64,000 nt of DNA. It comes from Nitrososphaerota archaeon (GTDB taxonomy: Archaea > Thermoproteota > Nitrososphaeria_A > Caldarchaeales > Calditenuaceae). This document shows, in pieces, positions 20,144-37,406 of the stretch (positions within the stretch are counted from its first letter, which is position 1; each line of letters opens with the position of its first letter). The notes under the pieces were generated by a model. The model saw nothing but the letters and a program-made list of their open reading frames with translations. It searched no databases and had not been told where the DNA came from. A program made the translations under genes and the position numbers. The stretch spans positions 1,440,001-1,504,000 of the forward strand of contig JBEPYO010000001.1 of assembly GCA_041641295.1 (NCBI GenBank), read 5' to 3'.

Positions 20144-20295
20144 CACAGCAGAATACTTACTCGCCTCTATCGCTATATAACTTAGCCGCATATCCTCCTC
20201 TCTTCTCTCTGGTTCTCCGATGGAGAGGGATAGGACAGAATCCACGCGGGGTAGTTATTTTAACTCCCACGAGGGTCTGGAGGTGTGGGGGAATT

Positions 20296-21303
20296 ATGAG
20301 GTGGAAAATAGCGATTGTGAACTCGGCAACTTTTGGGGCGTATACGGGGGTTCTTGAGAGGCTAAGCAAGGTGGGTGAGGTTGTGAGAATAAATGTGCCG
20401 AGGGAGATTAGTGGGGAGAAGCTAGCCTCCCGTCTAGCGGGGTTCCAGTTTGTCGTAGCCAGCACGAATCCGCGGTACGACGAGAAGTTCTTCAGGGCAA
20501 ATACTGACGTGGTTTTGCTGGCGAGGAATGGTATTGGCCTAGATAACATAGACGTGAAGGCTGCTACGGAGTGCGGTGTTGTTGTAACCAGGGTGCCTGG
20601 AGAGGTGGAGAGAGAGGCCGTGGCGGAACTCGCCATTGCACTGATGCTTGACGCTGCACGCTCAGTCTCCGCAGCCTACAACGCCGTAAGGGAGGGGAGA
20701 TGGCATGAGAGGGGCCGGTTCATCGGGCTTGAACTAAAGGGGAGGACAGTGGGCATCATAGGTCTCGGAAACATTGGGCGGAGGGTCGCCGAGATACTGT
20801 CTAAAGGGTTCGGAGCCCGGGTTCTCGCCTACGACCCTTACATCTCCGAAGACGCTGCGGCCAGTATCGGGGTGAAACTTACGGACTTGGAAACGCTCCT
20901 GAGAGAATCAGATATCGTGACGCTCCACGCCCCTCTTACAGAGGAGACGCGCCACATCATAAACGTGAAGACGATTGCGTTGATGAAGAATGGCTCTATA
21001 CTGGTCAACACGGCTAGAGGAGGTCTCGTCGATACTAATGCATTAGTTGAGGCCCTTAAGGCCGGCAAGCTGAGATATGCAGCATTAGACGTCGTGGAGG
21101 GGGATTATGTAATGCCTGGAAACCCACTCTTACAGTTTGAGAATATTGTAGTTACGCCTCACATTGGCGCCTACACCTACGAGTCGTTCGGCGGGATAGA
21201 TGAGTGTGTCGCCGAGGCTATCGAGGCTGTTGCTAAGGGTGAGAAGCCAAAGTACGTGGTTAATCCAGAAGTGTATGAGGGGCGGGTGAGGAGGCTGGAG
21301 TAA
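20296..21303 (+). CDS. D-isomer-specific 2-hydroxyacid dehydrogenase
   Basis: RNGIGLDNID, GLGNIG, NTARG, ALDV, TPHIG; start placed at MRWKIA. Confidence 0.9.
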   Translation: MRWKIAIVNSATFGAYTGVLERLSKVGEVVRINVPREISGEKLASRLAGFQFVVASTNPRYDEKFFRANTDVVLLARNGIGLDNIDVKAATECGVVVTRVPGEVEREAVAELAIALMLDAARSVSAAYNAVREGRWHERGRFIGLELKGRTVGIIGLGNIGRRVAEILSKGFGARVLAYDPYISEDAAASIGVKLTDLETLLRESDIVTLHAPLTEETRHIINVKTIALMKNGSILVNTARGGLVDTNALVEALKAGKLRYAALDVVEGDYVMPGNPLLQFENIVVTPHIGAYTYESFGGIDECVAEAIEAVAKGEKPKYVVNPEVYEGRVRRLE

Positions 21304-21351
21304 AATCAAATTTATATGGATCGATTGAGCATAGACAAATTGTAAGCGTCC

Positions 21352-21915
21352 ATGTTATTCTCCGCAAAAATTGATTTGGCTAAAAGAATGATTGAACCAC
21401 ATACAAAACACAACGTGGTGAGGCTCTCTGCTCTAAAGGAATACTTCAATGATCAAGTCGAGGTGGAGAGAATGATTAACAGCCTTGGGGACTTGGTCGT
21501 CTATGAGTATTTTGAGAATAGTTTCGGGGATGAGGAAGAAAATGTGAACTTTGGGCTGACGGTGTTGTATCCGGGGAAGGTTGGGCGGGAGTATTTCCTG
21601 ACCCGTGGACATTTCCATGAGAAGCGGGCTGCTGAGATCTATATTGGCTTGGAGGGTGAGGGGGTCATCTTAATGCAGTCGGAGGATGGGAAGGTGGAGT
21701 GGCGCCCTCTCGAACCAAACACTGTCGTTTACGTGCCGCCGGGGTGGGGGCATCGGACAATAAACACGGGCAATCAGAGGCTAACTTTCTTCTTCGCCTA
21801 TCCCTCAGACGCAGGGCATGACTATGAGATTGTTAGGAGGAAGGGCTTCGCAAAGCTGGTTGTAGAGGAGAATGGGCGACCGGTTTTAATCGACAACCCT
21901 AAGTATCGTACGTGA
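21352..21915 (+). CDS. Cupin-type glucose-6-phosphate isomerase family protein
   Basis: PGKVGREYFLTRGHFH...E.Y, YVPPGWGHRTINTG, AGHDY. Confidence 0.9.
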   Translation: MLFSAKIDLAKRMIEPHTKHNVVRLSALKEYFNDQVEVERMINSLGDLVVYEYFENSFGDEEENVNFGLTVLYPGKVGREYFLTRGHFHEKRAAEIYIGLEGEGVILMQSEDGKVEWRPLEPNTVVYVPPGWGHRTINTGNQRLTFFFAYPSDAGHDYEIVRRKGFAKLVVEENGRPVLIDNPKYRT

Positions 21916-21959
21916 GATTTCGCTTCGTGATTAATTAATCTCTTTTAGGGCTATAGTAT

Positions 21960-22994
21960 CTATGGGTTGAGAATTACTCGGAGGTTTTCAAGCTTCTGTG
22001 CTTCGCTGAAGCCGTTAACACCCTCTATCAGTGGGAGGCGCATGCTTATCAGCTGCTTAAGGTCCACCCTGCCTGAAGCCACTATGTCCAGAGCTTTCTT
22101 AAACTCGACTGGTGTTGACATAGATGTTCCGAGCACCCTTATCTGCTTATAGTGTATGATATTCGTATCTATTTCGACTCCTTTGACGCCGGCAGGTAGT
22201 CCAGCAAAGTAGTTGACTGCTCCCCCAGGCCTAACAACTCTCAAGGCATCCCTCTGCGCATCAGGTACGCCGACGGCCACTACTACTGCATCTACCCCCT
22301 CACCGCCCGTTAGCCTCTGAACCTCCTTTGCAACATCTACCCCCTCGCTCAGCAAGACTACGTGGTCAGCCCCCAGACGCTCAGCAAATCTTGCTCTAGC
22401 CTCGCTCTTCTCACACATGATTATTTTGCTGAGGCCGAGCGCCTTGGCTAATAAAAGATGCATGAGCCCAATTGGACCAGCGCCAAATATTGCCAGGCTA
22501 TCTCCAGCGCTCAATCCAAGCTTTAGCTGCCCCCTCAGACAGTCTGACAGGGGCTCTACAAGGGCGGCCTCCTCCATGCTCAGCCAGTCCGGAATCTCTT
22601 GGACACATCCAACGGAGAAGGCTGCGGCTGGAACGACCATGTATTCTGCAAACCCTCCGTCAACGTCTATGCCGATAGCATACCTCTTGGGACATAGAAC
22701 ATGCTCCCCTCGCAGACAGTAGAAACAGCTCCCGCAGAAGATGTTTGGATTCAGTGTTACACGCTTATTCAACAGCTCCTCCCTGCCCTTACCCGCGTCC
22801 ACGACTACACCCGCAACTTCATGCCCGAGGGTCACAGGAACTTTAGTCCTTGAGCCATAATTGTATGCCTTCAGGTCTGTCGCACATATGCCGGCGGCTG
22901 CAACTTTCAGAACAACCTCTCCTTCTCTCGGAACCGGTCTATCAACCTCTTCGAGCCGAAGATCCTTTACGCCATATAGCCTGAGCGCCTTCAT
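21960..22994 (-). CDS. Zn-dependent (MDR) polyol/sugar dehydrogenase
   Basis: GICATD, GHEVAG, CGSCFYC...C, GAGPIG. Confidence 0.9.
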   Translation of the reverse strand: MKALRLYGVKDLRLEEVDRPVPREGEVVLKVAAAGICATDLKAYNYGSRTKVPVTLGHEVAGVVVDAGKGREELLNKRVTLNPNIFCGSCFYCLRGEHVLCPKRYAIGIDVDGGFAEYMVVPAAAFSVGCVQEIPDWLSMEEAALVEPLSDCLRGQLKLGLSAGDSLAIFGAGPIGLMHLLLAKALGLSKIIMCEKSEARARFAERLGADHVVLLSEGVDVAKEVQRLTGGEGVDAVVVAVGVPDAQRDALRVVRPGGAVNYFAGLPAGVKGVEIDTNIIHYKQIRVLGTSMSTPVEFKKALDIVASGRVDLKQLISMRLPLIEGVNGFSEAQKLENLRVILNP

Positions 22995-23000
22995 CCCACA

Positions 23001-24032
23001 TCACGCGAGAGGTAGTGCAACGGGTCTACCTGTCTCCACTGACTTATGTGCCGCAAGAACTGCCTCTAAAGCCTTCCTCCCATCCACGCCGGTTACGGAA
23101 GGCTCTTTATCATGGATTATGCAATCGGCGAAGTGTTCGATCTCGTTTATGTATCCATCTCTAAACCTGTCTCTCCAGCTCTTGAAGCTCTCCGTTAGTA
23201 CGCGCATATCTTTTGTTACACGGGTCAGGGTTGTGCCTCTTATTTCTCCAACGGTAATTACTCCTTCAGTGCCCAAGATCTCAATCCTAGCATCATAACC
23301 ATAACCAACAGGGCATGCCCCATCAATGACCCCCAGACCATTGTTCCTAAACCTCGCTAAAACGACGGCCACATCATAAAAGTTAGGATACTTCTCCCTA
23401 AGGTCTGGACGTATGAGAGCTGAGACATCGCAGCAAATAGATGAATACTCATCACCCATAATCCATCTAAGTGTATCAAAATCATGGCTATTGACTTCTG
23501 CCAAGAATCCAATTCCCGTCTTTGGGTCCAGTGCCCAAGGAGGCGGCAAACCAGGTCCGCGACCCACCGACTTGACAAGGATAGGCCTCCCAATCTCTCC
23601 AGACTCTACTATTTTTTTAGCGGATGTAAACTCGGGGTCAAAACGCCTCATGAACCCAATCTGAAGCTTCACACCATATCGCTTGGTTACAGAGATCATT
23701 TTATCAGCCTCTTCAAGCGTCAAGGCCATGGGCTTCTCGCAGAAGACGTGCTTCCCAGCCTCAGCCGCCTCAATGGTTAGTGAGGTGTGAGTGAAAGTTG
23801 GTGTTGTTATCACTACAGCATCGAATTCGGACTTCCTCAGAGCTGTCGTGAGGTCTTTAAAGACTGCTAATCCGCCCAGCTCTTCCCCTAGCTTCGTCGC
23901 AGCGGCCAAATCACTGTCCACAATAGCTACGAGCTCTGCATTCTTTACCCTCGTCATAATGTTTCTCGCATGCACAGTGCCTGCCCTCCCAGCACCAATC
24001 ACGCAAAAGTTGACAATCTTTTGTGCAGGCAT
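23001..24032 (-). CDS. Gfo/Idh/MocA oxidoreductase (inositol 2-dehydrogenase-like)
   Basis: GAGRAG, CEKP, GFMRRFD, HDFD, YGYDAR.EI.GTEG. Confidence 0.88.
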   Translation of the reverse strand: MPAQKIVNFCVIGAGRAGTVHARNIMTRVKNAELVAIVDSDLAAATKLGEELGGLAVFKDLTTALRKSEFDAVVITTPTFTHTSLTIEAAEAGKHVFCEKPMALTLEEADKMISVTKRYGVKLQIGFMRRFDPEFTSAKKIVESGEIGRPILVKSVGRGPGLPPPWALDPKTGIGFLAEVNSHDFDTLRWIMGDEYSSICCDVSALIRPDLREKYPNFYDVAVVLARFRNNGLGVIDGACPVGYGYDARIEILGTEGVITVGEIRGTTLTRVTKDMRVLTESFKSWRDRFRDGYINEIEHFADCIIHDKEPSVTGVDGRKALEAVLAAHKSVETGRPVALPLA

Positions 24033-24073
24033 TTCGGAGACCTAAAGGCTTATAGGACCTATTTACTTTTCCC

Positions 24074-24868
24074 TTAAAAGTCTCCTCCCACTACAATCAC
24101 CTCACCTGATATGTATGAAGCCTCATCCGAAGCGAGGAATAGTATCGCCCTTGAAACCTCCTCAGGTTTTCCAAGCCTTCCGAAGAGGTAGCGCTTCTTG
24201 ATATCCTCCTCCGTTAAACCCCTTGCTTCGAGGTATCTTCTAAAGAGAGGTGTGTCTATCGCCCTTGGGGCCACAGCATTGACCCGTATCCCATAGGGTG
24301 CTAACTCGAGAGCTAGAGCCTTGGTGAAGCCGATAATGCCAGCCTTTGACGCCGCATATGCCGTTGACAATAACCCGCCACGGATGCCTTGTATCGACGA
24401 TACATTGACTATCGAGCCTCTTATAGAATTGCTTATCATATGTGAGACAACATATTTGCAGAACAGATAAACAGATTTTAGATTAACATCAATTGTTTTC
24501 TGCCAAGCGTCTGTGGTAGTCTCAAGAAGCGTGGCAATCAAGTGAATAGCGGCATTGTTCACAAGAATGTCTACTCGCCCATATCTATTCACTACGCTCT
24601 CTACGCATCTCTTCACATCTTCCTCGTTGGAGACATCCGCTTTTACGAAAAGGGCAGCCCCCTGACCATGTATGTCGGTGATCTCTTTCTCTAAATGCCT
24701 CCCAGCATCTTCATTGATGTCTACCAACACTACCCTGCACCCCTCATCTACAAACAAGGTCGAGGTCGAGCTACCAATCCCACTGGCTGCCCCAGTAATT
24801 ATCGCTACACGATCTTTTAGCCTGTATCTGCTCAAGCTAACACATCCTCGAAGAAGTTTTCTATCCAT
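24074..24868 (-). CDS. SDR family oxidoreductase
   Basis: TGAASGIG, NNAA, YAASK; true start may be TTG at 24835. Confidence 0.9.
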   Translation of the reverse strand: MDRKLLRGCVSLSRYRLKDRVAIITGAASGIGSSTSTLFVDEGCRVVLVDINEDAGRHLEKEITDIHGQGAALFVKADVSNEEDVKRCVESVVNRYGRVDILVNNAAIHLIATLLETTTDAWQKTIDVNLKSVYLFCKYVVSHMISNSIRGSIVNVSSIQGIRGGLLSTAYAASKAGIIGFTKALALELAPYGIRVNAVAPRAIDTPLFRRYLEARGLTEEDIKKRYLFGRLGKPEEVSRAILFLASDEASYISGEVIVVGGDF

Positions 24869-25868
24869 CTTTATAGGTTTCCTTGATGTAGGGAATAACC
24901 TTCGTACCCATGAACCTAATGAACTTTCTCTGGTCTGGGCTTGTACTTAGAAACTCGATCTCGTTTACACCCATTCTGACCCACTTCTCAATACGCTTAA
25001 TGGCATCTTCCTCACATGTTATTATGAACCTCTTCTGGAGGACTTGCTCCCGCGTAATTGTACTTCCCAGCCTCTCGAGCTCGCGTGGGTCGTAAATATC
25101 TGAGTCGAAAATACCTGGCACCATAGTCGGGTTCCAGAATCTGCACCCCTCAATAGCCCTGTCCAAGTCTTCGTCATATGATACAACACTATGAACTATC
25201 TTCTTAATCTTAGAGACATCGCGTCCCGCATCTGCCGCCCCCCTTTCCATCGCAGGTAATACCTCACTCACAAAAACTTGCTCAAACACGCGGGCGGAAA
25301 CCACAACCCCGTCGGCGTAGTAGCCCGCTACATAGCCGGACTTCTTTCCACTCGCAACCATGAATATGGGAATCTTAGTCTTGGGTTTTGTGTAAAGATT
25401 TGCCTGCCTAAGCTTATAGTACTTTCCATCATAATCAATAAAATCTCTCGTCCAGAGGGCCCTGATTATTTCAAAAGACTCTCGCACACGCATAAGTCTT
25501 TCATTATAAGGAGGCCACGGCAGCCCCAGAGGCATCTCATTCATTGCCTCGCCCGTTGCAAGACATAAAAACACTCGGCCTGGAAATATGTAGTCTAGTG
25601 TCGCATATGCTTGAGCAATAAGTGCTGGATGATAGCGCATTATTGTCGCACATACAGAGCCTATCCTCATTCTATGAGTCTTCACAGCCGCTATTCCAAG
25701 CCAGCTAAGTGCGAAGCCGGAGTGCGCATTTGTATGGCTCCACGGGTGGAAATGGTCACTAGACCATATCGTGTCGAAGTTGTAGCGCTCAGCCTCCACA
25801 GAGAATTCCAGAAGACTTACAGGGTCGTATTGTTCGTGTGCGCAGTAAAAGCCAAACTCGATAGTCAA
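24861..25868 (-). CDS. LLM-class F420-dependent dehydrogenase, Fgd/G6PDH-like
   Basis: AHEQ, SDHFHPW, RYHPALIAQA, TGEAMNE, GKYY.L..A.LY; start placed at TTG 25868. Confidence 0.8.
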   Translation of the reverse strand: MTIEFGFYCAHEQYDPVSLLEFSVEAERYNFDTIWSSDHFHPWSHTNAHSGFALSWLGIAAVKTHRMRIGSVCATIMRYHPALIAQAYATLDYIFPGRVFLCLATGEAMNEMPLGLPWPPYNERLMRVRESFEIIRALWTRDFIDYDGKYYKLRQANLYTKPKTKIPIFMVASGKKSGYVAGYYADGVVVSARVFEQVFVSEVLPAMERGAADAGRDVSKIKKIVHSVVSYDEDLDRAIEGCRFWNPTMVPGIFDSDIYDPRELERLGSTITREQVLQKRFIITCEEDAIKRIEKWVRMGVNEIEFLSTSPDQRKFIRFMGTKVIPYIKETYKDG

Positions 25869-26150
25869 CGAGGAAAAAATATGTAAGGAGATATTTAGAG
25901 ATAACCCGATATTCTGCGAGCATAGAGTAATGCGCGCGTTCATAAACCATTAGAGAATCATCCATTAATCTCCCACTGTCTACTGGCCAGTTAAAAAAAT
26001 TTCATGAACCCGTGAAATTATGTGATCCTAGGTGCCGGCCAAGTGTATTTAAAAGATTTTATGATATTGGAGACAAAAACAATCATATAAGATAGCAGCC
26101 ATATTCTGCGTGCGGAAAAATTTTTAAGTAGGCGAAAGTATTGCAGCTCT

Positions 26151-26918
26151 GTGAGACTAAAGGATAAGGTAGCTATAGTTACAGGCGGCGCTCGAGGTAT
26201 AGGATTTGCAATAGCTTCAAGGTTTGCGAAAGAAGGTGGGAAGGTAGCGATATTGGATATAGATTTGGAGAAGGCTGAAAAAGCTGTAAATACCATTAAA
26301 AATGAAGTCAGTGGGGCGGAAGTCATAGCGCTCCAAGCAGATGTGAGCAATGTTGACTCCGTTAAGAGATGTGTTGACGAGGTCGTTAAAAGGTTTGGAA
26401 AAATCGACATATTAGTGAACAATGCGGCAATCCACCTTGGAAAACCATTCCATGAAGAGCCGCTGGAATATTGGGAGAAACAATTCAGAATAAACGTGCT
26501 TGGTACAGTTATACCCTCCCAGCTAGTTGTGCCTCACATGATTAAGGCGGGAGGCGGCTCAATCATCAATATCTCGTCGAAGGCTGCGATCACGGGTGAG
26601 CCGGGGCACGCCGCCTATAGTGCACTGAAGGGCGCAGTACTCTCACTAACACTTGCGATGGCCGTTGACTTGGCACCATACAACATCCGGGTCAATGCTA
26701 TATGCCCAGGACCTACAGAGACAGACCTATTGTACTCGGCCACAACAGAAGAGGAGCGGAAAAGAATGGCTGCTAGAGCTCCTTTGAAGAGGCTGGCGAA
26801 GCCCGAGGATATAGCGGCAGCCGCCCTCTACCTCGCGTCTGATGATTCTGCATATGTGACTGGGCAGAAGTTCGTCGTGGATGGCGGCATGACGATCGTC
26901 GCTGTCGAGAGAGTGTAG
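26151..26918 (+). CDS. SDR family oxidoreductase
   Basis: TGGARGIG, NNAA, YSALK, NAICPG. Confidence 0.9.
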   Translation: MRLKDKVAIVTGGARGIGFAIASRFAKEGGKVAILDIDLEKAEKAVNTIKNEVSGAEVIALQADVSNVDSVKRCVDEVVKRFGKIDILVNNAAIHLGKPFHEEPLEYWEKQFRINVLGTVIPSQLVVPHMIKAGGGSIINISSKAAITGEPGHAAYSALKGAVLSLTLAMAVDLAPYNIRVNAICPGPTETDLLYSATTEEERKRMAARAPLKRLAKPEDIAAAALYLASDDSAYVTGQKFVVDGGMTIVAVERV

Positions 26919-26987
26919 CAGGCGTAATACACCCGCTAATACCTTTAATAAGCCCATGCAATAACAATGGTTACGGGTCCCTGATTT

Positions 26988-28619
26988 ATGTCTAGAAAGT
27001 TCATTATCCGCGACCCATTCGCACTGCATAGGGAGGGTGTATTAAAGAGTCGCGGTTACGCGGCGTGGAGGAGTAACATCTACGTGGCTGAAGCCATCTC
27101 TGATGTGTTGAAACCGTGTTTTGGCCCCAAAGGCATGTCTAAGCTGGTTATCGACAAGTTTACTGAAGGGACGCTCACGAGTCATGGTGCGGAGATACTG
27201 GAAAAGCTTGACCTTCACCACCCCGTAGCTAGGCTTCTCAGTGAGGCATCCAAGACCGTCGACAAAACGGTAGGGGATGGCACCAAGACAACAATTATAT
27301 TGATTGGGGAATTATTAAGAAAAGCTGCAGATCTGGCAACTAAGCAGCTAAAAGTCAATACAATAATACAGGGATACTCGATAGCATATAACACTGCATT
27401 GAAAAATCTACGGTCGTTTAGTATGGCGGTCAACACGGTCGATAGTAATTCAATTAAAAAATTTGTATCCGCAATGTTCACCGCTAGGACTTTAGGTAAT
27501 GCCGATCACCTCTCAGAACTAGCAACCCAGGCTATAGCCACAACCATTAGAAAAAACGGTGATAACAAGGTCCTAGATAGGGATGCTGTAAAAATTGTTA
27601 AAAAAGCCGGAGGAAGCATCATGGAGAGCAAGGTACTAGATGGTGTTATCATCGAGAAAGGGGTTGCTCATCCAGCTATGCCGCGAATTATAAAAAATCC
27701 GAGAATCGCGATGCTAAATATGGCCTTAAAAATAGATGAATTCAAGCATCTACAGCCGTTTAAGTATCATATAGATATCAACAAGTCTGGCAGCATCAAT
27801 CAGTTCCTACAGGAAGAGGAGAGGATTGTTCGAAGTATGGTTGAGAGGGTGTTATCGGTTGGCGCAAATGTTGTCATATGTAGAAAGAGGATGGGGGACG
27901 TTGCAAAACAATTGCTTGCAAAGGCCGGCGTTATGGGAGTAAGCCGGCTACTCAATGAGAAGGAGTTTACTAGCGTCGCAAAGATCACGGGCGCTAGAAT
28001 AGTTTCCAGCATAGATGATATCAGGGAGGAGGACTTGGGCAGAGCGGGGCTCATTAGAGAGATGCAGATAGGAAGTGAGCGGGTCCTAGCTATCGAGGGA
28101 TGTAATAGTTCAGGAGGTGTTACGGTTCTGTTGAGAGGTTTTTCAGAGAACGTACTAAATGACATCGAACACGCATTCAAAGACGCGATAACTTATGTTT
28201 CCTCGATGTTAGAGGGGCCAGCCTACTTGCCGGGGGGAGGGGCTGTAGAGGAGTCGCTAGCCATAGCTATTAGAAAGGAGGCTTTAGAGCATGTGGGAAA
28301 AGAGCAGGAAGCTATCATCTCATGTGCAGACGCTCTAGAAACTATTCCGCGGCTTCTTGCAGAAAACTCTGGGCATGACCCATTAGAAGTGCTGACTGAG
28401 CTAAGAGCAAAACATGAGAAAGGCGAGAACCAGTACGGATTTGACGCCTTTACTGGCGAAGTATGTGACATGATTAAACTTGGCATAGTTGAGTCTCATA
28501 GAATGAAGGAGCAGGTGTTAAAGACAGCATTTGAGACAGCTATTATGCTGTTAAGGGTGGATGAGTTGGTTGATAGACGGTATGCTAAGAGGCATGAGGG
28601 TGAGCTTGGCGGGGAATAA
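26988..28619 (+). CDS. Divergent group II chaperonin (thermosome-like) subunit
   Basis: Full-length TCP-1 layout: GPKGMSK, HPVARLL, VGDGTKT, HPAMP, PGGGA.E, IPRLLAENSG, LLRVDE; several ATP-site residues altered. Confidence 0.9.
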   Translation: MSRKFIIRDPFALHREGVLKSRGYAAWRSNIYVAEAISDVLKPCFGPKGMSKLVIDKFTEGTLTSHGAEILEKLDLHHPVARLLSEASKTVDKTVGDGTKTTIILIGELLRKAADLATKQLKVNTIIQGYSIAYNTALKNLRSFSMAVNTVDSNSIKKFVSAMFTARTLGNADHLSELATQAIATTIRKNGDNKVLDRDAVKIVKKAGGSIMESKVLDGVIIEKGVAHPAMPRIIKNPRIAMLNMALKIDEFKHLQPFKYHIDINKSGSINQFLQEEERIVRSMVERVLSVGANVVICRKRMGDVAKQLLAKAGVMGVSRLLNEKEFTSVAKITGARIVSSIDDIREEDLGRAGLIREMQIGSERVLAIEGCNSSGGVTVLLRGFSENVLNDIEHAFKDAITYVSSMLEGPAYLPGGGAVEESLAIAIRKEALEHVGKEQEAIISCADALETIPRLLAENSGHDPLEVLTELRAKHEKGENQYGFDAFTGEVCDMIKLGIVESHRMKEQVLKTAFETAIMLLRVDELVDRRYAKRHEGELGGE

Positions 28620-28744
28620 GCTCCCACCAGCCACACAGTTAATGGGTAAGTTTATGTGAGCATAGCACTGCATTGGACTCTGCTCGTAGCATATAGTCGG
28701 AAAAATATTATTTAAGGGCCGCTGGTTGGAGTTTGGGAGGGTTT

Positions 28745-30292
28745 ATGAGCCCTCAGTACCTTATTGGTGTCGATATTGGGACAGCTGGAACGAAAGCAGC
28801 TATATTTGACGTTGAGGGCAACCAGTTGGCCGTATCATATGAAGAGTCTAAACTTTATTATCCGAGGGTGGGATGGGTTGAACAGGTTCCCGAAGACTTC
28901 TATATTTCGACGGTTAACACTGTCAGGGAGGTTGTTAAGAAGTCTAGGATCGACCCGCGCCAAGTCGCGTCAATTGCTTTCAGCGGACAGATGGCCGGCA
29001 TATTGGCGATAGATAAGGACTGGAACCCCGTGATGCCATACGACTCGTGGCTTGACATTAGGTGTGAAAAATACATCGATTATTTGAAGGCGAACCATGA
29101 AGAGTTGCTCATAGATAGGACTGGCGTGCCGCCGACTGTTGACCATCTCCCTAAAATGATGTGGTGGAAGAACGAGAGGCGCGAAACTTTCGAGAAGATA
29201 TGCAAATTTACCGTCCCCGCAGTGTATGTGGCCGGCAGACTAGCAGGGCTTAAGGGTGAAGACGCATTCTATGACTACACGTATGTAACTTTTACAGGGT
29301 TATTCGATATCCACAGGATGGATTGGTCTGAAGAGCTTGCCGAGATTTTCAAATTGCCGTTGGACAAGATGCCCAGGGTGGTTAAACCTTGGGAAGTGAT
29401 CGGAGAGCTCACGCAGGAGTCGGCTGAGAAAATGGGGCTTGTAAAGGGGATACCTATTGTAGCGGGGGCTGGAGATGGTATGGCTTGCGCGTTTGGTGCC
29501 GGATTGACGCAGCCCGGCCTATGCCTAGACATCGCTGGAACGGCCTCTGCCTTCTACGTCTCAACCGATAAAATTGCCCCAGATGTCAAACATAGGACGC
29601 TACTACACCTCAAGTCTGTCGTCCCAGATCAGTGGTGTGTTGGGGCGTATATTAATGGTGGTGGCCTATGTCTAAGATGGTTCAGGGACGAGATTGCTAA
29701 AGAGGAGAAGACAATAGCCCAACAGCAGGGGAGAGACCCGTATGAAATCTTGGATGAGAGAGCTTCAGAAATCTCCCCTGGTAGCGAGGGGGTATTCTTC
29801 ATCCCCCACCTTGGCGGAAGGGCATATCCTTACAACCCGCGCATCAGAGGTGTGTGGGTAGGCTTCAGCTGGAAACACACCAAAGGGCACCTCTACAGAT
29901 CCATACTAGAATCCATAGCGTTTGAATATAATCACTACTTGAAAATCCTCCGCGAGCTGTTAAGTAACATCAGGATAGGTGAGGTTAGGGGGATAGGAGG
30001 TGGGAGCAAGAGCCGGATTTGGTGTCAGATAAAGGCCGATATCTTAGGAGTCCCATACGTCTTGCTTAACAGAGAAGAATATGCCGTCACCGCATTGGCC
30101 GTTATCGGTGGATATGGTGTTAAAGTGTTAAAAGACTACAAGAAGACGATTGATGAATGGGTCAAGCCCGTTAAAAGGGTTGAACCAAGAGAGGAGGTGG
30201 CCAGCGTCTATCGTAAGTATTCAGAGTATTATGAAAAACTGGTTGCGCGAATCGATTACTTGATGGAAGACCATAGCAAACTATTCTCATAG
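28745..30292 (+). CDS. FGGY family carbohydrate kinase (xylulokinase-like)
   Basis: IGVDIGT, GWVEQ.P, SGQM, W.D.R, AGAGD, GT, GGGSKS..W.QIKADILG. Confidence 0.9.
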   Translation: MSPQYLIGVDIGTAGTKAAIFDVEGNQLAVSYEESKLYYPRVGWVEQVPEDFYISTVNTVREVVKKSRIDPRQVASIAFSGQMAGILAIDKDWNPVMPYDSWLDIRCEKYIDYLKANHEELLIDRTGVPPTVDHLPKMMWWKNERRETFEKICKFTVPAVYVAGRLAGLKGEDAFYDYTYVTFTGLFDIHRMDWSEELAEIFKLPLDKMPRVVKPWEVIGELTQESAEKMGLVKGIPIVAGAGDGMACAFGAGLTQPGLCLDIAGTASAFYVSTDKIAPDVKHRTLLHLKSVVPDQWCVGAYINGGGLCLRWFRDEIAKEEKTIAQQQGRDPYEILDERASEISPGSEGVFFIPHLGGRAYPYNPRIRGVWVGFSWKHTKGHLYRSILESIAFEYNHYLKILRELLSNIRIGEVRGIGGGSKSRIWCQIKADILGVPYVLLNREEYAVTALAVIGGYGVKVLKDYKKTIDEWVKPVKRVEPREEVASVYRKYSEYYEKLVARIDYLMEDHSKLFS

Positions 30293-30438
30293 ATGATATT
30301 CCGGCGTTAACTTTCTTTATACTGTCGTGCTTCTAATTAAGCTATCGACTGACGAGGTAAAAAGGTATGAAACGCTACGTATCGATATGTATCGTGCTAT
30401 AAATGTTTATATGTAGGCATTTCGATCTAATCTCCGCT

Positions 30439-32073
30439 ATGGAAAAGGAAAAGCCTTCTGAGAAAGCAATATCGAGGAGGGCTGCTATCAGTCAAACGGC
30501 CAAGATCGCAGGCGTTGCTGCGGCTGGGCTCGTTGTGGGTGGGGTCGCAGGTTATTTGTCAGGAACAGCAGCGCAGCCTAGGCCGGCCACTGTTACTGTC
30601 GAGAGGCCAGTGGAGAGGACTGTAACCCTTCCAGGCGGAACAGTCACAGTTGAAAGGGAGAGAACTCTCACGGTCACCGCGACCGCCCCAGGTGCGCCCA
30701 CCGGTGTTGCCGAGCTTAGAGCCCAGCTAGCAAAAAGATACGCGACAGGTAAGCCTGGGGACAAATTCCTTGTCGGATATGTTACCTGGACCTTGGCCCA
30801 AGAGGCGCCAAAGTATGACTATCAGGGCGCCGATCAAGCAGCTAGGCAGCTTGAACTTGACTTCAAGGGTATAGAGATAGGGGCCGAGGCATTAAAGGCT
30901 GTAGAGGCTACTGACTCGCTAATTGCGGCAGGCGCTAAGGGGATTGTTTACTGGGCCCCCGCCATAGCTGCTATGCAAGAGATAGTGAGGCTCTGTGAGG
31001 AGAACAAGGTGTTTGCATCCACAGCTTGGTGCAGGGATCCAGCCCTACTACCGGGAGACAAGGGGCCATACTGGTTCCTAGAGTTCAGCACGATGTCGGA
31101 TGAGATGAGCTTCCACTGCATGACACTACTCTATGAGAAGATGAGGAAGTATGGAAGGAGCAAAGTCCTTCACGTGCAGTCTTCAAAGACTATTGCACCC
31201 GACTCTACCGCGCTCATCAATCAGGGAATAGCACTAGCGTGGAGAAGGTATCCATTCATACAGAACCTCGGGCATTACTGGGGTGAATGGGCGTATCCTG
31301 GAGGTAGAAAGGCTGGAGAGGATGCATTGGCAGTCAGAACAGACTACGAAGCGGTCTGGGGACACAACGACGACCAAGCGATGGGCACCGTCTCAGTATT
31401 CAAGGAGAGAGGGATAGATATTGGCCCATTCACGGCAGCTAGAGACGCAATAGTAGCCTATGTAGACCTAGTGATAAAGGGTGAGTTGTTCGTAACGTCA
31501 CTCACGGAATTCCAGTATTTCGGCGGCAAACGCGTCACCGCTATCTACGATGCCGTTACAGGGGCCTCATATCCGCTCAGAGACGAGATGGTTCAGTCAC
31601 CATGGGTCACCACCGTTCTCAACCTCTCAACACCAGGAATCAAGGAGGAGAACGAGGAACTAATCAGAAGCTCTGGTCTTGAGTGGCATCCAAACTTCGT
31701 AGTAGTTGACGCTGCCAAGCTCTTAGACTTCCTGAAGATAAGCGAGGTATATCCGTCAAGGATGTATCCATACGACTTCAGGACTCTGTCAGTGGGTAAG
31801 GTTAGAGAGCTTGGACTCACATTTGACAGGCACGCGAAGAACTACCTAACGGCAAACGACTACTACTACGTTCCGATGATGGAGAGGATGAAGGTGACAG
31901 ATGACAGGACGAAGGGAGAAAACTTAGAGTCATTCAGGAAGCAATTCGGATTAACAATGAAATACTTCTTGGACCTGAACTGGGATACGTGGAAAGATAA
32001 CGAGGCTAAAATAAGCGCTGCTCAGGCAGAAGGGCTGAAGCTGCTGCCGCGGTGGGGAGCAATAGTAGAATAA
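30439..32073 (+). CDS. Sugar ABC transporter substrate-binding protein with Tat signal
   Basis: SRRAAI twin-arginine followed by hydrophobic helix, T/V-rich linker, HNDDQAMG motif of RbsB-like binding proteins. Confidence 0.85.
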   Translation: MEKEKPSEKAISRRAAISQTAKIAGVAAAGLVVGGVAGYLSGTAAQPRPATVTVERPVERTVTLPGGTVTVERERTLTVTATAPGAPTGVAELRAQLAKRYATGKPGDKFLVGYVTWTLAQEAPKYDYQGADQAARQLELDFKGIEIGAEALKAVEATDSLIAAGAKGIVYWAPAIAAMQEIVRLCEENKVFASTAWCRDPALLPGDKGPYWFLEFSTMSDEMSFHCMTLLYEKMRKYGRSKVLHVQSSKTIAPDSTALINQGIALAWRRYPFIQNLGHYWGEWAYPGGRKAGEDALAVRTDYEAVWGHNDDQAMGTVSVFKERGIDIGPFTAARDAIVAYVDLVIKGELFVTSLTEFQYFGGKRVTAIYDAVTGASYPLRDEMVQSPWVTTVLNLSTPGIKEENEELIRSSGLEWHPNFVVVDAAKLLDFLKISEVYPSRMYPYDFRTLSVGKVRELGLTFDRHAKNYLTANDYYYVPMMERMKVTDDRTKGENLESFRKQFGLTMKYFLDLNWDTWKDNEAKISAAQAEGLKLLPRWGAIVE

Positions 32074-32135
32074 ATCTTTATCCATAATTTTTTATTTACG
32101 TGAAATATTTTTTAATTGCGTTTACATTATTTATG
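32074..32135 (+). terminator. Oligo-T rich tract after the substrate-binding protein gene (likely partial terminator)
   Basis: Several T-runs (ataattttttattt, atatttttttaatt) between binding-protein and ATPase genes. Confidence 0.4.
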
Positions 32136-32146
32136 TTGATTGGGGA

Positions 32147-33706
32147 ATGGGCTCCTCCCAAGAGATACTTGTAGAAGCAAAGAACATCACTAAAACATTC
32201 GACACAGTAGTCAGAGCTCTGGATGGCGTTAGTATAGAAGTGAGAAAGAGGGAGATCCTTAGTGTAGTAGGGGAGAATGGTGCTGGAAAATCCACGCTAA
32301 TGAAAATTCTTGTCGGTATACATCCACCAGATAGCGGAGAGTTATACTACATGGGCGAGCGTATTCCATTTCCTAAAAACCCGCTAGACGCCCTGAAAAG
32401 GGGTATCTCAATAGTTTACCAAGAGAGAGGTGTCATCCCCCACCTCAAGGTCTACCAATTTCTATTCCTAGGCCTCGAAGACAAGTTCACAAAGCTCGGG
32501 CGGCTACAGCTAGAAAAAATCATAGGTACGGCCAAGTCCGTTTTTGATGAACTGGGAATCAAATGTGATCTGGGAAGCTATCTATACGAGTTACCTCTAT
32601 CCACTCAGAAGATGGTTGAAATAGCGAGGGCAATTCTGAGTATCAGACTGGCTACAGGTGAGGGCAGGGAGGGCGAGGTCACCCCTCTGATAATACTTGA
32701 TGAGCCAACCGCCCCACTATCAATAGAAGAGAGAGACGAGTTATTCGAGTATCTGCTAAACCTAAAAAAGGAGAACTCATTCATATTTGTGTCACATATC
32801 ATCCCCGAAGTAATGAAATTTAGCGATCGCATATACGTTCTACGGGATGGAAAGGTCGTGGCACATCACGACGTGGCTGCGGAGAAGGTCACCGAAGAAG
32901 AGTTGTTCAGAGAAATAGTCGGCCGAGAATCCTACTACGATCTTTTAGAAAGATACGGTTATGGACAAGAGCAGCTTCAAGAGAGGCCCACAATCCTGTC
33001 TGTTAGAAATCTCACCAAGAAAGGATACTACACAGATATTTCCTTCGATATTCGCGAGGGAGAATGTGTTGGGCTTTTTGGACCTGCTGGCTGCGGTAAG
33101 AGTGAGATCGCCAAAACTCTCTACGGTGTCCTTACATTCGATAAGGGCAAGATAATCATGGATGGTCATGAATTGAGGGCGAAGGGTGGACCATACTCTA
33201 GAATACGGAGGGGCCTGGGGTATTTCTCGGGTGAGACGGGTAAAGAGCTCTTCCTCTACTGGTCGATAAGAAAGAATGTCTCGATAATTAATTTTGAAAA
33301 GGTTGTTAGAAAACACCTCGGAGTTGTTCCAGTAATAAGCCTGAGGCTGGAGAAGAGCCTAGCTGAAAAAATAGTGAAGAAGCTACGGATTAGGGCCCCG
33401 AGTGTCGATACCGAGTGCTACTCTCTTAGTGGTGGCAATAAGCAGAAGGTCTCAGTCGGTAAATGGCTTGAGAAGAGTCCGAAAGTATTGATTCTGGAAG
33501 ACCCCACTATTGGCATTGATGTGGGCGCGAGGGAAGACATATACGAAGTCCTACTAGAAATGAAGAAGAACGGGGTCTCAATGCTGCTTGTAAGCGACGA
33601 CCCCAAGGAATATGCGATTCTCTGTGACAAAATACTAATGCTAAAGGATGGGGTGGTTCAGCGGGTTTGCTCAAATAAGGAATTCAGGAGTTTGATGGGT
33701 CTATGA
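32147..33706 (+). CDS. CUT2 sugar ABC transporter ATP-binding protein (two NBDs)
   Basis: GENGAGKST, ILDEPT, FVSH; second NBD GPAGCGKS, LSGGNKQK, LEDPT.GIDVGA. Confidence 0.95.
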   Translation: MGSSQEILVEAKNITKTFDTVVRALDGVSIEVRKREILSVVGENGAGKSTLMKILVGIHPPDSGELYYMGERIPFPKNPLDALKRGISIVYQERGVIPHLKVYQFLFLGLEDKFTKLGRLQLEKIIGTAKSVFDELGIKCDLGSYLYELPLSTQKMVEIARAILSIRLATGEGREGEVTPLIILDEPTAPLSIEERDELFEYLLNLKKENSFIFVSHIIPEVMKFSDRIYVLRDGKVVAHHDVAAEKVTEEELFREIVGRESYYDLLERYGYGQEQLQERPTILSVRNLTKKGYYTDISFDIREGECVGLFGPAGCGKSEIAKTLYGVLTFDKGKIIMDGHELRAKGGPYSRIRRGLGYFSGETGKELFLYWSIRKNVSIINFEKVVRKHLGVVPVISLRLEKSLAEKIVKKLRIRAPSVDTECYSLSGGNKQKVSVGKWLEKSPKVLILEDPTIGIDVGAREDIYEVLLEMKKNGVSMLLVSDDPKEYAILCDKILMLKDGVVQRVCSNKEFRSLMGL

Positions 33707-34692
33707 AGGGAGAATTTGAGAAGTCAACTGTGGTAACAACCGTTGCGCTGGCTTGGAGGCTGATTAGGATAAATCCCGCATTGTGGACCATTTTCAGTCT
33801 AATAGTCCTCTTCTCTGTAATAGTTCCAGAAAAGTTTCTCTCGGCCAGCAATCTGGTGGCTATTCTGAAGAGTTTTGCTGTAACCGCGATGCTGTCCGTG
33901 GGGCCGACCTTCGTAATATTGATGGGCTCTATCGATGTCTCTTATATGGGTGTGTGGATGTTTGGTGGCGCCCTTGTATGGCTGCTCTACCCATATCTTG
34001 GCCTTGCGTCAATACTGGTTTATCCTGTATTCGGCCTGCTTGTCGGACTAGTAAATGGCTATATCCATGTCAAGGCTAAGATACCATCATTCATACTCAC
34101 AATCGCGGTGACCGCTGTATTTGCGTTCCTAACCACATATGTTAGAAACGTCTCAGGGGTATTGACGCTCACTGTTCCAGCATATAATTTCCTGAGGGAG
34201 TCGCCCATACCCTACCTTCCATCACCATTCCTACTGGCACTGCCGACTATTGCTTTGGCGATATTCTTTATGTTCTTCACTAAAGTGGGGACCTATCTCT
34301 GCGCTATAGGGTCTAATGAGGAGGGTGCCAGCCTAGCTGGAATCAATGTCAGAAAATATAAAATACTTGCTTTCATGATTAGCGGGTTCTTAACAGGGCT
34401 AGGCTCTATCGCTATTTTTGTCCACCTCGGAAACCAGACAAGGGTGGACTTTGACCCCAGCGAGTTGATTAGAGGTTTAGCTGCAATAGTCCTTGGGGGG
34501 ACACCTTTGGCCGGTGGGATGGGTGGCCCGCATAGGACTCTGATGGGTGCACTAGTTTATGTTTTGATATTCAATGGGCTGTTCCTACTGCCTGGTGTAG
34601 ATCCGAACCACCTCAAACTCTATATAGGTACGCTTTTGCTGGCGGCTGTTGTCGTCGCGTCGAAAGCTCTTAAAGGTGCCTTAATCGCCTAG
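33703..34692 (+). CDS. Sugar ABC transporter permease
   Basis: GSIDVS, IPSFILT, AIGSNEEGASLAGIN, AAIVLGGT.L.GG.G. Confidence 0.92.
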   Translation: MKGEFEKSTVVTTVALAWRLIRINPALWTIFSLIVLFSVIVPEKFLSASNLVAILKSFAVTAMLSVGPTFVILMGSIDVSYMGVWMFGGALVWLLYPYLGLASILVYPVFGLLVGLVNGYIHVKAKIPSFILTIAVTAVFAFLTTYVRNVSGVLTLTVPAYNFLRESPIPYLPSPFLLALPTIALAIFFMFFTKVGTYLCAIGSNEEGASLAGINVRKYKILAFMISGFLTGLGSIAIFVHLGNQTRVDFDPSELIRGLAAIVLGGTPLAGGMGGPHRTLMGALVYVLIFNGLFLLPGVDPNHLKLYIGTLLLAAVVVASKALKGALIA

Positions 34693-34706
34693 CGAGTGGT
34701 GCAAAC

Positions 34707-35669
34707 ATGGGTCAAACAATCGTTTATAGGGAGTGGCTGCATAGAAATCTTAACACTATAGTGCCGATCTCCGGGCTTTTATTGTTAATTACTCTTTTAC
34801 GGATTGCCAACCCATTCTTCCTAGCGAGCTGGGACAGTGCAATCACTCTGATCTACGGTATGTCATTTTTCCTAATAGCGGCTTGCGGGCTTACGCTAGT
34901 CATTCTTATGGGCTCGTTTGATTTTTCCGTTCCCAGTGTTCTAAAGCTTTCTGCCATGATATTCGCTGTCCTATATCCTTCCATCGGCTTTCTATCAATA
35001 CCCTCGGCCCTAGGTGTAGCCCTAGTTTTCGGATACGTGAATGGCTTGTTACTGGCGAAGTTTGGAATCCCCTCTTTTATGGCCACTCTAGCCACATCTA
35101 TGGTGGCTGAGGGGCTAGCCCAAATAATCTCTGGTGGATATACGCGGATGATAACTGACCCGGCATTCAGGGCTATCTCGACGACCATGATATTTGGTTT
35201 GCCGGCGATATTTTATTGGAGCGTGGTTTTGTGGCTTGTCGCCGTGCTTATTACGATGGTTACACCCTTCGGTAGGGCTATCTACGCTATTGGCGGAAAT
35301 CTGGTAGGGGCGAATCTCGCTGGGATAAATGTCTCAAGGGTTAGGATTCTAGTCTTCATGATCTGCGCACTGTTCGCGGGTCTCGCGGGTATTTTCTATG
35401 CTTCTCAGATTCAGGGGGCGCATATGCAGGTTGGTGTCTTGGACACGATACCTCTCTTTGCGAGCGTGGTTGTGGGTGGGACGGCGTTGACTGGGGGTGT
35501 CGGTGGTGTGCATAGGACTCTGCTGGGGGTGTTGATTATCAGGTGGCTGGATTCTGGTCTAAGCATGCTGGCAATAGATCTGAACATTAGGATGATAATC
35601 TTCGGAGTTATCGCGATTGTGATGGCGATATTGACGATAGATAGGCGGAGGATTAAGATAATGAAGTAG
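34707..35669 (+). CDS. Sugar ABC transporter permease
   Basis: GSFDFS, IPSFMATL, YAIGGN, VVVGGTALTGGVG. Confidence 0.92.
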   Translation: MGQTIVYREWLHRNLNTIVPISGLLLLITLLRIANPFFLASWDSAITLIYGMSFFLIAACGLTLVILMGSFDFSVPSVLKLSAMIFAVLYPSIGFLSIPSALGVALVFGYVNGLLLAKFGIPSFMATLATSMVAEGLAQIISGGYTRMITDPAFRAISTTMIFGLPAIFYWSVVLWLVAVLITMVTPFGRAIYAIGGNLVGANLAGINVSRVRILVFMICALFAGLAGIFYASQIQGAHMQVGVLDTIPLFASVVVGGTALTGGVGGVHRTLLGVLIIRWLDSGLSMLAIDLNIRMIIFGVIAIVMAILTIDRRRIKIMK

Positions 35670-35672
35670 GTT

Positions 35673-36752
35673 TTAGCTGAGGTTCCAGTGGACTGGTATA
35701 AATCTGCTCTTCTTAGATTCTTTAGCTGGAGGCCTCCCCACAATCGCTATCTTGTAGCCGCATTTCGGGCACGTGTTCTGGGGTGTTAGACGCCACTCTA
35801 TTATGTCGAATCCAAACCTCTCCACAACCATGTATCCACATCCTGGGCAGTAGGTGTGCTCGTACGGATGGCCTGGTACGTTTCCTATGTAGGCGTAGTT
35901 CATTCCCTCTTCTTTCGCTATTCTCCAGTGGGCTTCGAGCGTCTCTATCGGCGTCCATGGTAGGTGCATTAGCTTGTAGTCTGGGTGGAATCTTAGGAAG
36001 TGTATGGGCGTGTCTGGGCCGAGGTTGTCGTGAACCCATCTCACAAGCTTTCGAGCCGCGTTTAGGTCGTCGCCGATTTGGGGGACTACTAGGTCGGTTA
36101 TCTCGATGTGTATCCGCGTCTTCTCCTTCATCTCGAGGAGTGTCTGGAAGATTGGCTCCGCGTCGGGTATCCCGATGTAGCGTCTCACAAACCCCTTCTC
36201 CCCATTACCCTTAAAGTCTACTGTTGCTGCGTCGAGGAATGTGGATGCCATGGCCACTGACTCTGGTGTCCAGTATCCGTTGGTGACGAAGATGTTGAAT
36301 AGGCCGAGCCTCTTGGCCTCTAGGCCCACATCCCGCGCAAACTCCATGAAGATTGTCGGCTCGTTGTAGGTGTAGGCTATTCCGTGTGAGCCGTACCGCG
36401 CAGCATGCTCCGCCACCTGTCTCGGAGTAACCTCGATTCCTTCAACCTTCCTACGCTGGCTGATGTCGAAGTTTTGGCAGTATTGGCAGAGCCAGTTGCA
36501 GCCAGTAGTGGCTATGCTGAATATCTTTGTACCGGGCATATAGTGTGTTACTGGCTTCTTCTCTATTGGGTCGATATGGCTTGCGATTACCCTGCCATAG
36601 ACGTAGAGGTAGAGTTTTCCGTCGTGGGCTCCCCTAACCCCACATAGACCCACTTGGTTGTCGGAGAGGCGGCAATATCTGGCACAAGCTGTGCATTTAA
36701 TCTTCCCTCCCTCTATAGTCCATAGCTCCGCCTCTTTTCCGGGAATTTGCAT
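35673..36752 (-). CDS. amrS: AmmeMemoRadiSam system radical SAM enzyme
   Basis: CTACARYC, DPIEKKP, GCNWLCQYCQN, AYTYNEP, RFHPDYK, YIGNVPGH, two C-terminal CxxC. Confidence 0.9.
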   Translation of the reverse strand: MQIPGKEAELWTIEGGKIKCTACARYCRLSDNQVGLCGVRGAHDGKLYLYVYGRVIASHIDPIEKKPVTHYMPGTKIFSIATTGCNWLCQYCQNFDISQRRKVEGIEVTPRQVAEHAARYGSHGIAYTYNEPTIFMEFARDVGLEAKRLGLFNIFVTNGYWTPESVAMASTFLDAATVDFKGNGEKGFVRRYIGIPDAEPIFQTLLEMKEKTRIHIEITDLVVPQIGDDLNAARKLVRWVHDNLGPDTPIHFLRFHPDYKLMHLPWTPIETLEAHWRIAKEEGMNYAYIGNVPGHPYEHTYCPGCGYMVVERFGFDIIEWRLTPQNTCPKCGYKIAIVGRPPAKESKKSRFIPVHWNLS

Positions 36753-37404: not shown

Positions 37405-37406
37405 AG

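Follow-up and report, generated by a model that had tools for sequence, protein, structure and literature searches.

A divergent thermosome paralog linked to a carbohydrate-uptake cassette in Caldarchaeales

Background

Lineage-specific duplication is usual for the genes of thermosomes, the group II chaperonins of archaea, and the resulting paralogs are commonly regarded as housekeeping subunits that are interchangeable or tuned to temperature. Here, we analyze a thermosome paralog encoded in a 64,000-nucleotide window (positions 1,440,001 to 1,504,000 of contig JBEPYO010000001.1, GenBank assembly GCA_041641295.1) from a Nitrososphaerota archaeon of the family Calditenuaceae, order Caldarchaeales. 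The gene (window positions 26988-28619, plus strand; 543 amino acids (aa); Cpn60_TCP1 domain) had been described in an earlier reading of this DNA, hereinafter the original prediction, as a possible client-specific chaperonin subunit that moves with a catabolic module. The comparative genomic evidence makes it very likely that this gene encodes a conserved accessory thermosome linked to one cassette of genes for carbohydrate uptake and catabolism.

Several described systems provide a frame for this gene. In its three-domain fold, with the lid built in, the paralog matches the canonical thermosomes (alpha and beta subunits; the alpha, beta and gamma subunits of TF55 in Sulfolobales), and a P-loop with the DGTKT motif is common to the paralog and the beta chains of Sulfolobales and Acidianus. 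Unlike the canonical thermosomes, however, it is accessory, being encoded in 17 of the 76 genomes of the order, and is co-inherited with a catabolic and importer cassette; it has also lost the Asp of the GMDK motif, carries Arg in place of Lys161 and, in the subclade that includes the window protein, His in place of Asp60, and possesses a remodeled lid stem. With the specialized subunits of the eukaryotic CCT/TRiC, the paralog has in common that these are paralogous group II chaperonins with diverged apical domains and unequal use of nucleotide, but it is not orthologous to CCT subunits and nests within the archaeal canonical clade, and a fixed position in a hetero-oligomer is known on the CCT side only. 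In bacteria, some of the multiple GroEL paralogs are dedicated to particular pathways or operons, such that the extra chaperonin is encoded with, and needed for, the proteins of the pathway. These are group I chaperonins that act with GroES, whereas the window paralog is an archaeal group II chaperonin that travels in a replaceable nutrient cassette.

The vertebrate proteins BBS6, BBS10 and BBS12 are tied to one specific assembly task. One study characterizes them as chaperonin-like, strongly diverged group II paralogs (PMC2846930). They are eukaryotic and derived from CCT, whereas the window paralog retains the core of the nucleotide site and is found in a metabolic context. The gene of the ‘archaeal-like’ chaperonin of a thermophilic bacterium is said to belong to a specific operon, namely a stress operon. 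That chaperonin comes from another domain of life and has a gene context different from that of the window paralog; the relevant report presents it as thermosome-like and outside the standard housekeeping set (PMC5635000).

In the full-text literature searched (thermosome combined with Aigarchaeota, paralogs, gene clusters or sugar), there is no description of a thermosome linked to such a cassette, although supplements, which were outside the scope of the search, could hold more. The terms ‘thermosome’ and ‘chaperon-’ have 0 occurrences in the main text of the Wolframiiraptor paper, and a Calditenuaceae paper does not mention thermosomes or chaperonins either; enrichment cultures of Wolframiiraptor are on record (PMC9246946). 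In a study of Caldarchaeales metagenome-assembled genomes (MAGs), an ‘Archaeal chaperonin’, hydantoinase/oxoprolinase and ABC transporters are named among the genes of predicted provirus regions, and GroEL-annotated gene clusters are named among the strain-unique genes (PMC10547907).

Linkage of the paralog to the cassette

In a sample of 401 genomes of the phylum, the paralog was detected only in Caldarchaeales, where it is represented in four genera (3 of 8, 1 of 13, 6 of 8 and 7 of 14 genomes, respectively). Orthologs of the FGGY carbohydrate kinase encoded directly downstream of the paralog (at least 73% identity) and of the solute-binding protein of the cassette's ATP-binding cassette (ABC) importer (at least 67% identity) were found in exactly the same 17 genomes and in 0 of the 59 others. 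The kinase gene directly follows the paralog on the same strand at 15 of the 16 further genome loci, and this adjacency persists through rearrangement of the remaining cassette. Named records with this gene order come from Ca. Wolframiiraptor spp., Aigarchaeota and Nitrososphaeria. Thus, the claim that the chaperonin moves with a catabolic module is borne out by the identical distribution of paralog, kinase and binding protein, by the 15 loci with the kinase directly downstream and by the presence of a swapped cassette in a congener (see below); the neighborhood survey likewise recovers the recurrent link to a sugar cassette.

The clade of this paralog, as delineated by database search, includes members from Caldarchaeales, a few Bathyarchaeia and hot-spring metagenomes. 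Its basal members are encoded on one Bathyarchaeia MAG contig and several metagenome contigs, where the gene is still found among orthologs of the short-chain dehydrogenase (SDR), the importer (binding protein 69-76% identical), the cupin protein and the dehydrogenases of the window cassette. In another basal type, genes for the importer and for a beta-helix protein precede the paralog. A gene for a 460-484-aa protein without a Pfam family (L062, 759-2213, minus strand; L061, 1298-2680, minus strand; L054, 4997-6412, minus strand) lies upstream of the Bathyarchaeia-type paralogs in divergent orientation; a protein atlas points weakly to a cluster of PQQ-like beta-propeller proteins for it (score 0.91, recognition lower than usual).

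Origin, fold and selection

The paralog yields one full-length match to PF00118 (Cpn60_TCP1), with 473.1 bits over residues 37-529 and profile positions 1-487 of 490; against the same profile, the canonical thermosome subunit encoded at 41811-43478 (plus strand; Cpn60_TCP1) scores 656.3 bits. The two proteins are 36% identical (189 of 521 columns, 8 gaps, E 6e-122). The source genome (1.56 Mb, 5 contigs) encodes three Cpn60_TCP1 proteins, namely the paralog and two canonical thermosome subunits, the second of which is encoded elsewhere on contig C1. The Pfam matches and coordinates confirm the placement of a full-length TCP-1-fold gene between an SDR gene and the FGGY kinase and ABC importer genes. 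Among the NCBIfam models, the paralog exceeds the equivalog cut-offs of thermosome_alpha (485.9 vs 450) and thermosome_beta (485.5 vs 400) and falls below that of the older subfamily model TIGR02339, thermosome_arch (483.7 vs 671.1). The cut-offs of all CCT models lie far above its scores, the best of which is that for CCT gamma (375.7 bits vs 553.45).

Identity to the paralog declines without a break from 87% to 44% among relatives that all bear the clade signature, and canonical thermosomes follow at 43% or less. In a maximum-likelihood tree of 68 rows, built from archaeal thermosomes, the paralog clade (40 rows) receives 100% SH-aLRT support and is placed inside the canonical ‘copy 2’ lineage, on a long stem (0.25 + 0.42 substitutions per site). 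Judging by this topology, the paralog arose within the lineage, through duplication of one of the two housekeeping thermosome genes that these archaea possess. Kinship with CCT subunits is ruled out by the CCT model scores and by the nesting in the archaeal canonical clade, within the limits of a tree built from archaeal sequences: the duplication occurred from one canonical archaeal type.

The AlphaFold (AF2) model of the paralog, built from 67 aligned sequences, has a pLDDT of 88.1 and a pTM of 0.84, and displays the strands at both termini, the stem loop and a protrusion helix 24 residues long (residues 267-290). Foldseek comparison of this model with the Thermococcus KS-1 chaperonin gives a TM-score of 0.90, and with the solved thermosomes 1q2v, 1a6d and 4xcd, TM-scores of 0.86-0.90.

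The reading frame of the paralog is intact in all 17 genomes. The ratio of nonsynonymous to synonymous substitution rates (dN/dS) is 0.08-0.16 in 8 of the 11 genome pairs (dS is saturated in the other 3), compared with 0.023-0.040 for the canonical copy in the same genomes (ten close pairs) and 0.03-0.09 for the neighboring cassette genes. In the three closest pairs, dN is 0.070-0.096 for the paralog vs 0.010-0.013 for the canonical copy. The paralog is the fastest-evolving gene of the cassette, with 46-87% identity between loci vs 73-88% for the kinase. It evolves under purifying selection and is not a decaying duplicate.

Nucleotide site, apical domain and lid

All the motif differences from the canonical copy that had been quoted in the original prediction were recovered in the translation and pairwise alignment, but two of them lose weight as signs of an altered ATP site. 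According to a study on TRiC and thermosomes, Asp60 and Asp386 position the attacking water and Lys161 senses the gamma-phosphate in these chaperonins (PMC6765261). The core of the site is retained in the paralog. In the P-loop, G96, D97 and G98 are invariant across 67 aligned sequences; in the GGG motif (G416-418), G417 and G418 are invariant in the 67 sequences and G416 is conserved in at least 90%; and D399, the equivalent of Asp386 (the KDA Asp), is present in the paralog, as predicted, and invariant in the 67-row alignment. The conservation of the P-loop, the GGG motif and D399 in the clade argues for nucleotide use.

The P-loop of the paralog reads GDGTKT (residues 96-101, with Lys at position 100), compared with GDGTTT in the canonical copy, and Lys occupies this fifth position in all 55 clade proteins (P0004-P0058). 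This replacement had been taken for a sign of an altered ATP site. However, ADGTKT is also read in both aligned solved thermosome beta chains of Sulfolobales/Acidianus (3j1e_A and 6xhi_A), and because Lys is the normal residue in these subunits, DGTKT is not a defect and the Lys was discarded as a mark of a crippled site.

The sole clade-wide loss at the nucleotide site is that of the GMDK Asp. In the window paralog, this region reads PCFGPKGMSK, with S51 in place of the Asp; none of the 53 clade proteins with a readable N-terminal motif keep the Asp, which is invariant in the 28 canonical rows and is replaced in the clade by S, Y, F, K, L, H, V, N or G. The loss of a catalytic Asp that had been noted for TSHGAE (canonical TNDGAT) holds for the window protein, where His66 takes the place of the hydrolytic Asp60, leaving the hydrolytic Asp pair incomplete with D399 present; it does not hold as a trait of the clade. 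Among the 54 clade proteins with a readable N-terminal region, 14 have His and 40 keep Asp at this position. The His66 subclade has 97% support, and in an alignment of 12 genome-derived paralogs, this His is confined to the three that belong to the same genus as the window. The MFTAR motif, with Arg167 in place of the nucleotide-sensing Lys161 of canonical ALVSK, represents a conservative change, with Arg in 38 of the 40 clade rows and Lys in all 28 canonical rows. The paralog is predicted to hydrolyze ATP, possibly at a slowed rate in the His66 subclade.

The divergence of the paralog is unevenly spread over the protein. Compared with the canonical copy in the same 12 genomes, the apical domain has diverged 3.7-fold more, the intermediate domain 3.0-fold more and the equatorial domain 1.8-fold more. 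Positions that are invariant in canonical thermosomes and hold other, clade-conserved residues in the paralogs map to the lid stem (248-260), to residues 299-307 and 317-333 and to the C-terminus; the replacements include K248 and F252 (both in 40 of 40 rows), R299 (39 of 40), D529 (40 of 40) and R530 (34 of 40). In the 299-307 region, canonical QKGIDD is replaced by RKRMGD in the window paralog, and residues 299-312 would correspond to the client-binding helix of CCT apical domains. Clade-specific residues stay invariant between sequences that are only 44-50% identical. The insertion of 4 residues relative to the canonical copy, within LKIDEFKHLQPFKYHIDI, is real but was misplaced when described as a longer helical protrusion: in the AlphaFold model, it falls in the low-confidence lid-stem loop (248-266) that precedes the protrusion helix and hence lies outside that helix. 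The sole poorly predicted internal stretch of the model, 255-257, is inside the same loop.

Further divergent thermosome paralogs

At least three Cpn60_TCP1 matches are present in 43 of the 76 genomes of the order. We inspected 11 further loci with divergent paralogs in seven chosen genomes (L101 and 10 of the 58 additional matches). Genes of binding-protein-dependent ABC importers were found within 5 kb of 10 of these 11 loci, with some of the Pfam matches for binding proteins and permeases below the gathering score, and in the eleventh, the chaperonin gene is directly 3' of an MFS transporter gene. For rough comparison, the share of the source genome that lies this close to a tblastn match for an ABC ATPase or permease is 17% with a 3-kb flank and 25% with a 5-kb flank.

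In phylogenetic terms, the paralogs of L096 and L097 are a nested duplicate within the paralog clade, and the other nine make up a separate group with very long branches and unsure placement. The two nested genes encode proteins 38% (L096, 9082-10809, minus strand) and 34% (L097, 8379-9757, plus strand) identical to the window protein; one of them is near a CUT2 importer and the other accounts for the MFS-associated locus. In several of the more divergent loci, the chaperonin gene appears to be embedded among the transport and catabolic genes. In L098, an apparent operon consists of genes for a putative binding protein, an ATPase, two permeases and the chaperonin, ahead of a polysaccharide deacetylase; in L099, the order is hydantoinase A-hydantoinase B-chaperonin; in L100, the chaperonin gene is directly 3' of that of a MalK-like ATPase; and in L106, the order is hydantoinase A-like gene (an unannotated 387-aa open reading frame (ORF) upstream)-racemase-ATPase-permease-permease-chaperonin. 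The nucleotide motifs of the divergent paralogs are eroded, with no GDG in L098 and GDGFIS in L100.

L098-L100 come from one genome with six Cpn60_TCP1 matches, three of them very divergent (353-419 bits; L098, 8161-9936, plus strand; L099, 8368-9945, plus strand; L100, 8501-10138, minus strand). L101-L106, from four other genomes of the order, encode six divergent thermosome paralogs that score 288-521 bits and all have ABC importer genes next to them; what else is encoded nearby varies and includes HAAT-type permeases, a D-serine-dehydratase-like protein, an enolase together with an APH kinase, an Asp/Glu/hydantoin racemase and the hydantoinase A-like protein.

The cassette and its chromosomal site

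The cassette occupies about 16.5 kb of the window (19121-35669, genes on both strands). The SDR gene directly upstream of the paralog (26151-26918, plus strand) is separated from it by a 69-bp gap, and its ortholog also adjoins the paralog in L034-L037, L041, L044 and the Bathyarchaeia-type loci. A TATA-like box, TTTAATAA (26944-26951, plus strand), is located 37 nt 5' of the paralog ATG and is kept in the two congeneric loci, a weak signal read by eye from the sequence only. A promoter and terminator scan based on the bacterial sigma-70 and intrinsic-terminator consensus sequences gave no useful signal, with 8 promoter-like sites vs 7.1 expected.

The ORF of the FGGY kinase (28733-30292, plus strand; FGGY_N 176.9 bits, FGGY_C 90.7 bits) opens with TTG 28733, but judging from the alignment of orthologs, which begin with Met-Ser/Cys-Pro/Ser-Gln-Tyr at the equivalent position, translation most likely starts at ATG 28745. 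The kinase scores below every equivalog cut-off, including those of the two models nearest to it, XylB (xylulokinase; 290.1 vs 380.25) and gluconokinase (285.9 vs 648.55). A second, 64%-identical FGGY kinase, interrupted by an in-frame TGA in one genome, is encoded in L094 (9247-10797, plus strand) and L095 (9325-10869, plus strand) together with genes for an IolG-like protein and a zinc-dependent alcohol dehydrogenase (Zn-ADH) or an SDR. In 11 of the 16 other genome loci, a gene for a tungsten-type aldehyde:ferredoxin oxidoreductase (AFOR_N and AFOR_C; e.g. L046, 12412-14274, plus strand), which is absent from the window cassette, lies 3' of the kinase gene; in two of these loci, one or two dehydrogenase genes intervene.

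Downstream of the kinase gene, there follow genes for a CUT2-type ABC importer, all on the plus strand. The first encodes a 556-aa solute-binding protein (30403-32073), whose Peripla_BP_4 match of 26.9 bits falls short of the 35.1-bit cut-off; the others encode an ATPase in which ABC_tran matches twice (32147-33706) and a pair of BPD_transp_2 permeases (33703-34692 and 34707-35669). The left part of the cassette encodes a Zn-ADH (19121-20245, minus strand), a D-2-hydroxyacid dehydrogenase (20119-21303, plus strand), a cupin/GPI-like protein (21352-21915, plus strand), an IolM-like Zn-ADH (21960-22994, minus strand), an IolG-like GFO/IDH/MocA protein (23001-24032, minus strand), another SDR (24074-24868, minus strand) and an F420-type luciferase-like oxidoreductase (24861-25943, minus strand).

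The binding protein has an N-terminal twin-arginine (RR) motif followed by a hydrophobic stretch. The same combination is seen in all 14 binding proteins of chaperonin-linked cassettes that were examined, and TatC is encoded in the genome. However, an RR-type N-terminus is also found in at least 5 other putative binding proteins of the source genome and in that of the alternative cassette of L092, with no chaperonin nearby; being general in the lineage, this feature does not make the binding protein a specific partner of the chaperonin and is kept as a lead only.

The GC content of the cassette is 0.46-0.51 (20-36 kb), compared with 0.53-0.58 in most other parts of the window. The flanks consist of housekeeping genes, with a primase gene and a ThiF/rhodanese gene (17611-18864) on the left and, on the right, a radical SAM gene (35673-36752) followed by the histidine biosynthesis operon and the canonical thermosome gene. 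This operon (36811-41404, minus strand; GATase, IGPD, HAD hydrolase, histidinol dehydrogenase and HisG) separates the cassette from the canonical thermosome gene. In a congener that lacks the paralog (L092), the orthologs of the ThiF/rhodanese and radical SAM genes enclose a cassette of another kind, 13 kb long, which encodes a different ABC importer and three oxidoreductases of the GFO type. By this comparison of gene orders, the site is a swap hot spot and the cassette a replaceable unit. No integrase or transposase was found among the Pfam-annotated cassette genes.

Proposed mechanism and alternative explanations

On balance, the best explanation of these observations is probably that the paralog is a functional accessory thermosome subunit dedicated to its cassette. 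One of the two housekeeping thermosome genes was duplicated, and the copy then diverged rapidly, chiefly in the apical domain, which binds clients and forms the lid, and in the intermediate domain; since then, it has been passed on, lost and swapped together with a single cassette for carbohydrate uptake and catabolism. The product would most likely form, or join, a double-ring, ATP-driven folding cage, in which the altered lid stem and apical surface would adapt the cage to one or more cassette proteins, candidates being the adjacent kinase, the ABC ATPase and the twin-arginine precursor of the binding protein. That the clients are indeed proteins of the cassette is plausible from the gene context, if somewhat short of probable.

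Several observations weigh against this dedicated role or limit what the linkage can say. The whole cassette co-distributes, and any cargo gene of a mobile cassette would have the same pattern; therefore, the phyletic pattern singles out no client. At the sixteenth genome locus, only 375 bp of contig remain beyond the paralog, and the kinase is encoded 12 kb away on the same contig. The basal, Bathyarchaeia-type members have no adjacent FGGY kinase gene, and therefore, the kinase cannot be shown to be the ancestral partner; the search of the Bathyarchaeia genome behind L054 gave no match for the kinase, but only about 0.6 Mb of this genome is present, so that this is no evidence of absence. 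Conversely, the kinase paralog with 64% identity is found at loci where no chaperonin gene adjoins it. Separate TATA-like boxes precede the chaperonin paralog and the kinase gene, so that the two need not be co-transcribed. The 11 further loci are non-independent, representing roughly six lineages from the seven chosen genomes. Over the nine pairs for which both values could be estimated, dN is 4-10 times as high in the paralog as in the canonical copy, and part of this excess could reflect relaxed constraint. Finally, His66 could mean a weak ATPase, which would fit a holdase or a non-folding role.

Within Caldarchaeales, the adjacent FGGY kinase is the best single candidate client suggested by gene order. 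In the basal members and the other paralog families, by contrast, attention falls on the importer, the feature common to all the cassettes. FGGY kinases and hydantoinase A possess the actin-like ATPase fold (by Pfam clan assignment), which keeps the idea of an actin-fold client viable, but it covers only three of the lineages, through the FGGY kinase of the window and the hydantoinase A of L099 and L106.

The strongest competing explanation, although an unlikely one, is that the paralog is an extra general-purpose thermosome subunit that mixes into the housekeeping ring or forms its own ring, tuning folding capacity or kinetics during growth on the imported sugar, without preference for cassette proteins. 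Temperature-specific thermosome subunits elsewhere provide a comparable mode of action, and the retention of all ring-forming and nucleotide-site elements, the maintenance of both canonical copies in the paralog-bearing genomes and the P-loop shared with ordinary Sulfolobales beta subunits would all be readily accounted for. Such a subunit, however, would not be expected to be gained and lost strictly with one cassette (17 of 17 and 0 of 59 genomes), nor would other paralogs be expected in other importer cassettes, and the concentration of divergence in the apical domain and lid is at odds with a general role.

A non-folding role tied to solute import, as a scaffold or regulator of the importer or as a holdase for the twin-arginine precursor of the binding protein, with little or no ATP turnover, appears distinctly improbable. 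It would explain why ABC importer genes are the one element common to nearly all paralog loci, and would be compatible with the eroded nucleotide motifs of the more divergent paralogs in L098 and L100, with the replacement of the hydrolytic Asp by His in the window subclade and with the RR motif and hydrophobic segment of all 14 cassette binding proteins examined, together with the presence of TatC. Nevertheless, the RR-type N-terminus is unspecific, given its occurrence in the other binding proteins and in the congener's alternative cassette, and the paralog clade conserves the P-loop, the GGG motif and D399. The notion of a duplicate that decays or drifts neutrally while being carried along by a mobile cassette, for which the fast evolution of the paralog and the low GC content of the cassette could be invoked, is already contradicted by the intact frame in 17 of 17 genomes, the dN/dS values, the invariance of the clade-specific residues and the spread of the clade over two archaeal classes; neutral decay, which would have undermined the original prediction, can be dismissed.

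Returning to the cassette-dedicated accessory subunit, a broader version of it can be put forward tentatively. Caldarchaeales and some Bathyarchaeia might harbor a radiation of client-dedicated group II chaperonins, each encoded in, and exchanged with, the nutrient-uptake cassette from which its client or clients come; this is possible rather than likely. The candidate clients would be either actin-fold (ASKHA) ATPases or the twin-arginine binding proteins and ATPases of the importers.

Significance

A selected, accessory thermosome lineage with a remodeled lid and apical surface that is strictly inherited with its cassette makes a natural, tractable system for the study of client specificity in group II chaperonins, a question that in the eukaryotic CCT can be approached only retrospectively. 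At the practical level, heterologous expression of catabolic cassettes from thermophiles might need the cassette's own chaperonin. If the radiation of dedicated chaperonins is real, it would represent a prokaryotic, modular parallel to the subfunctionalization of CCT.

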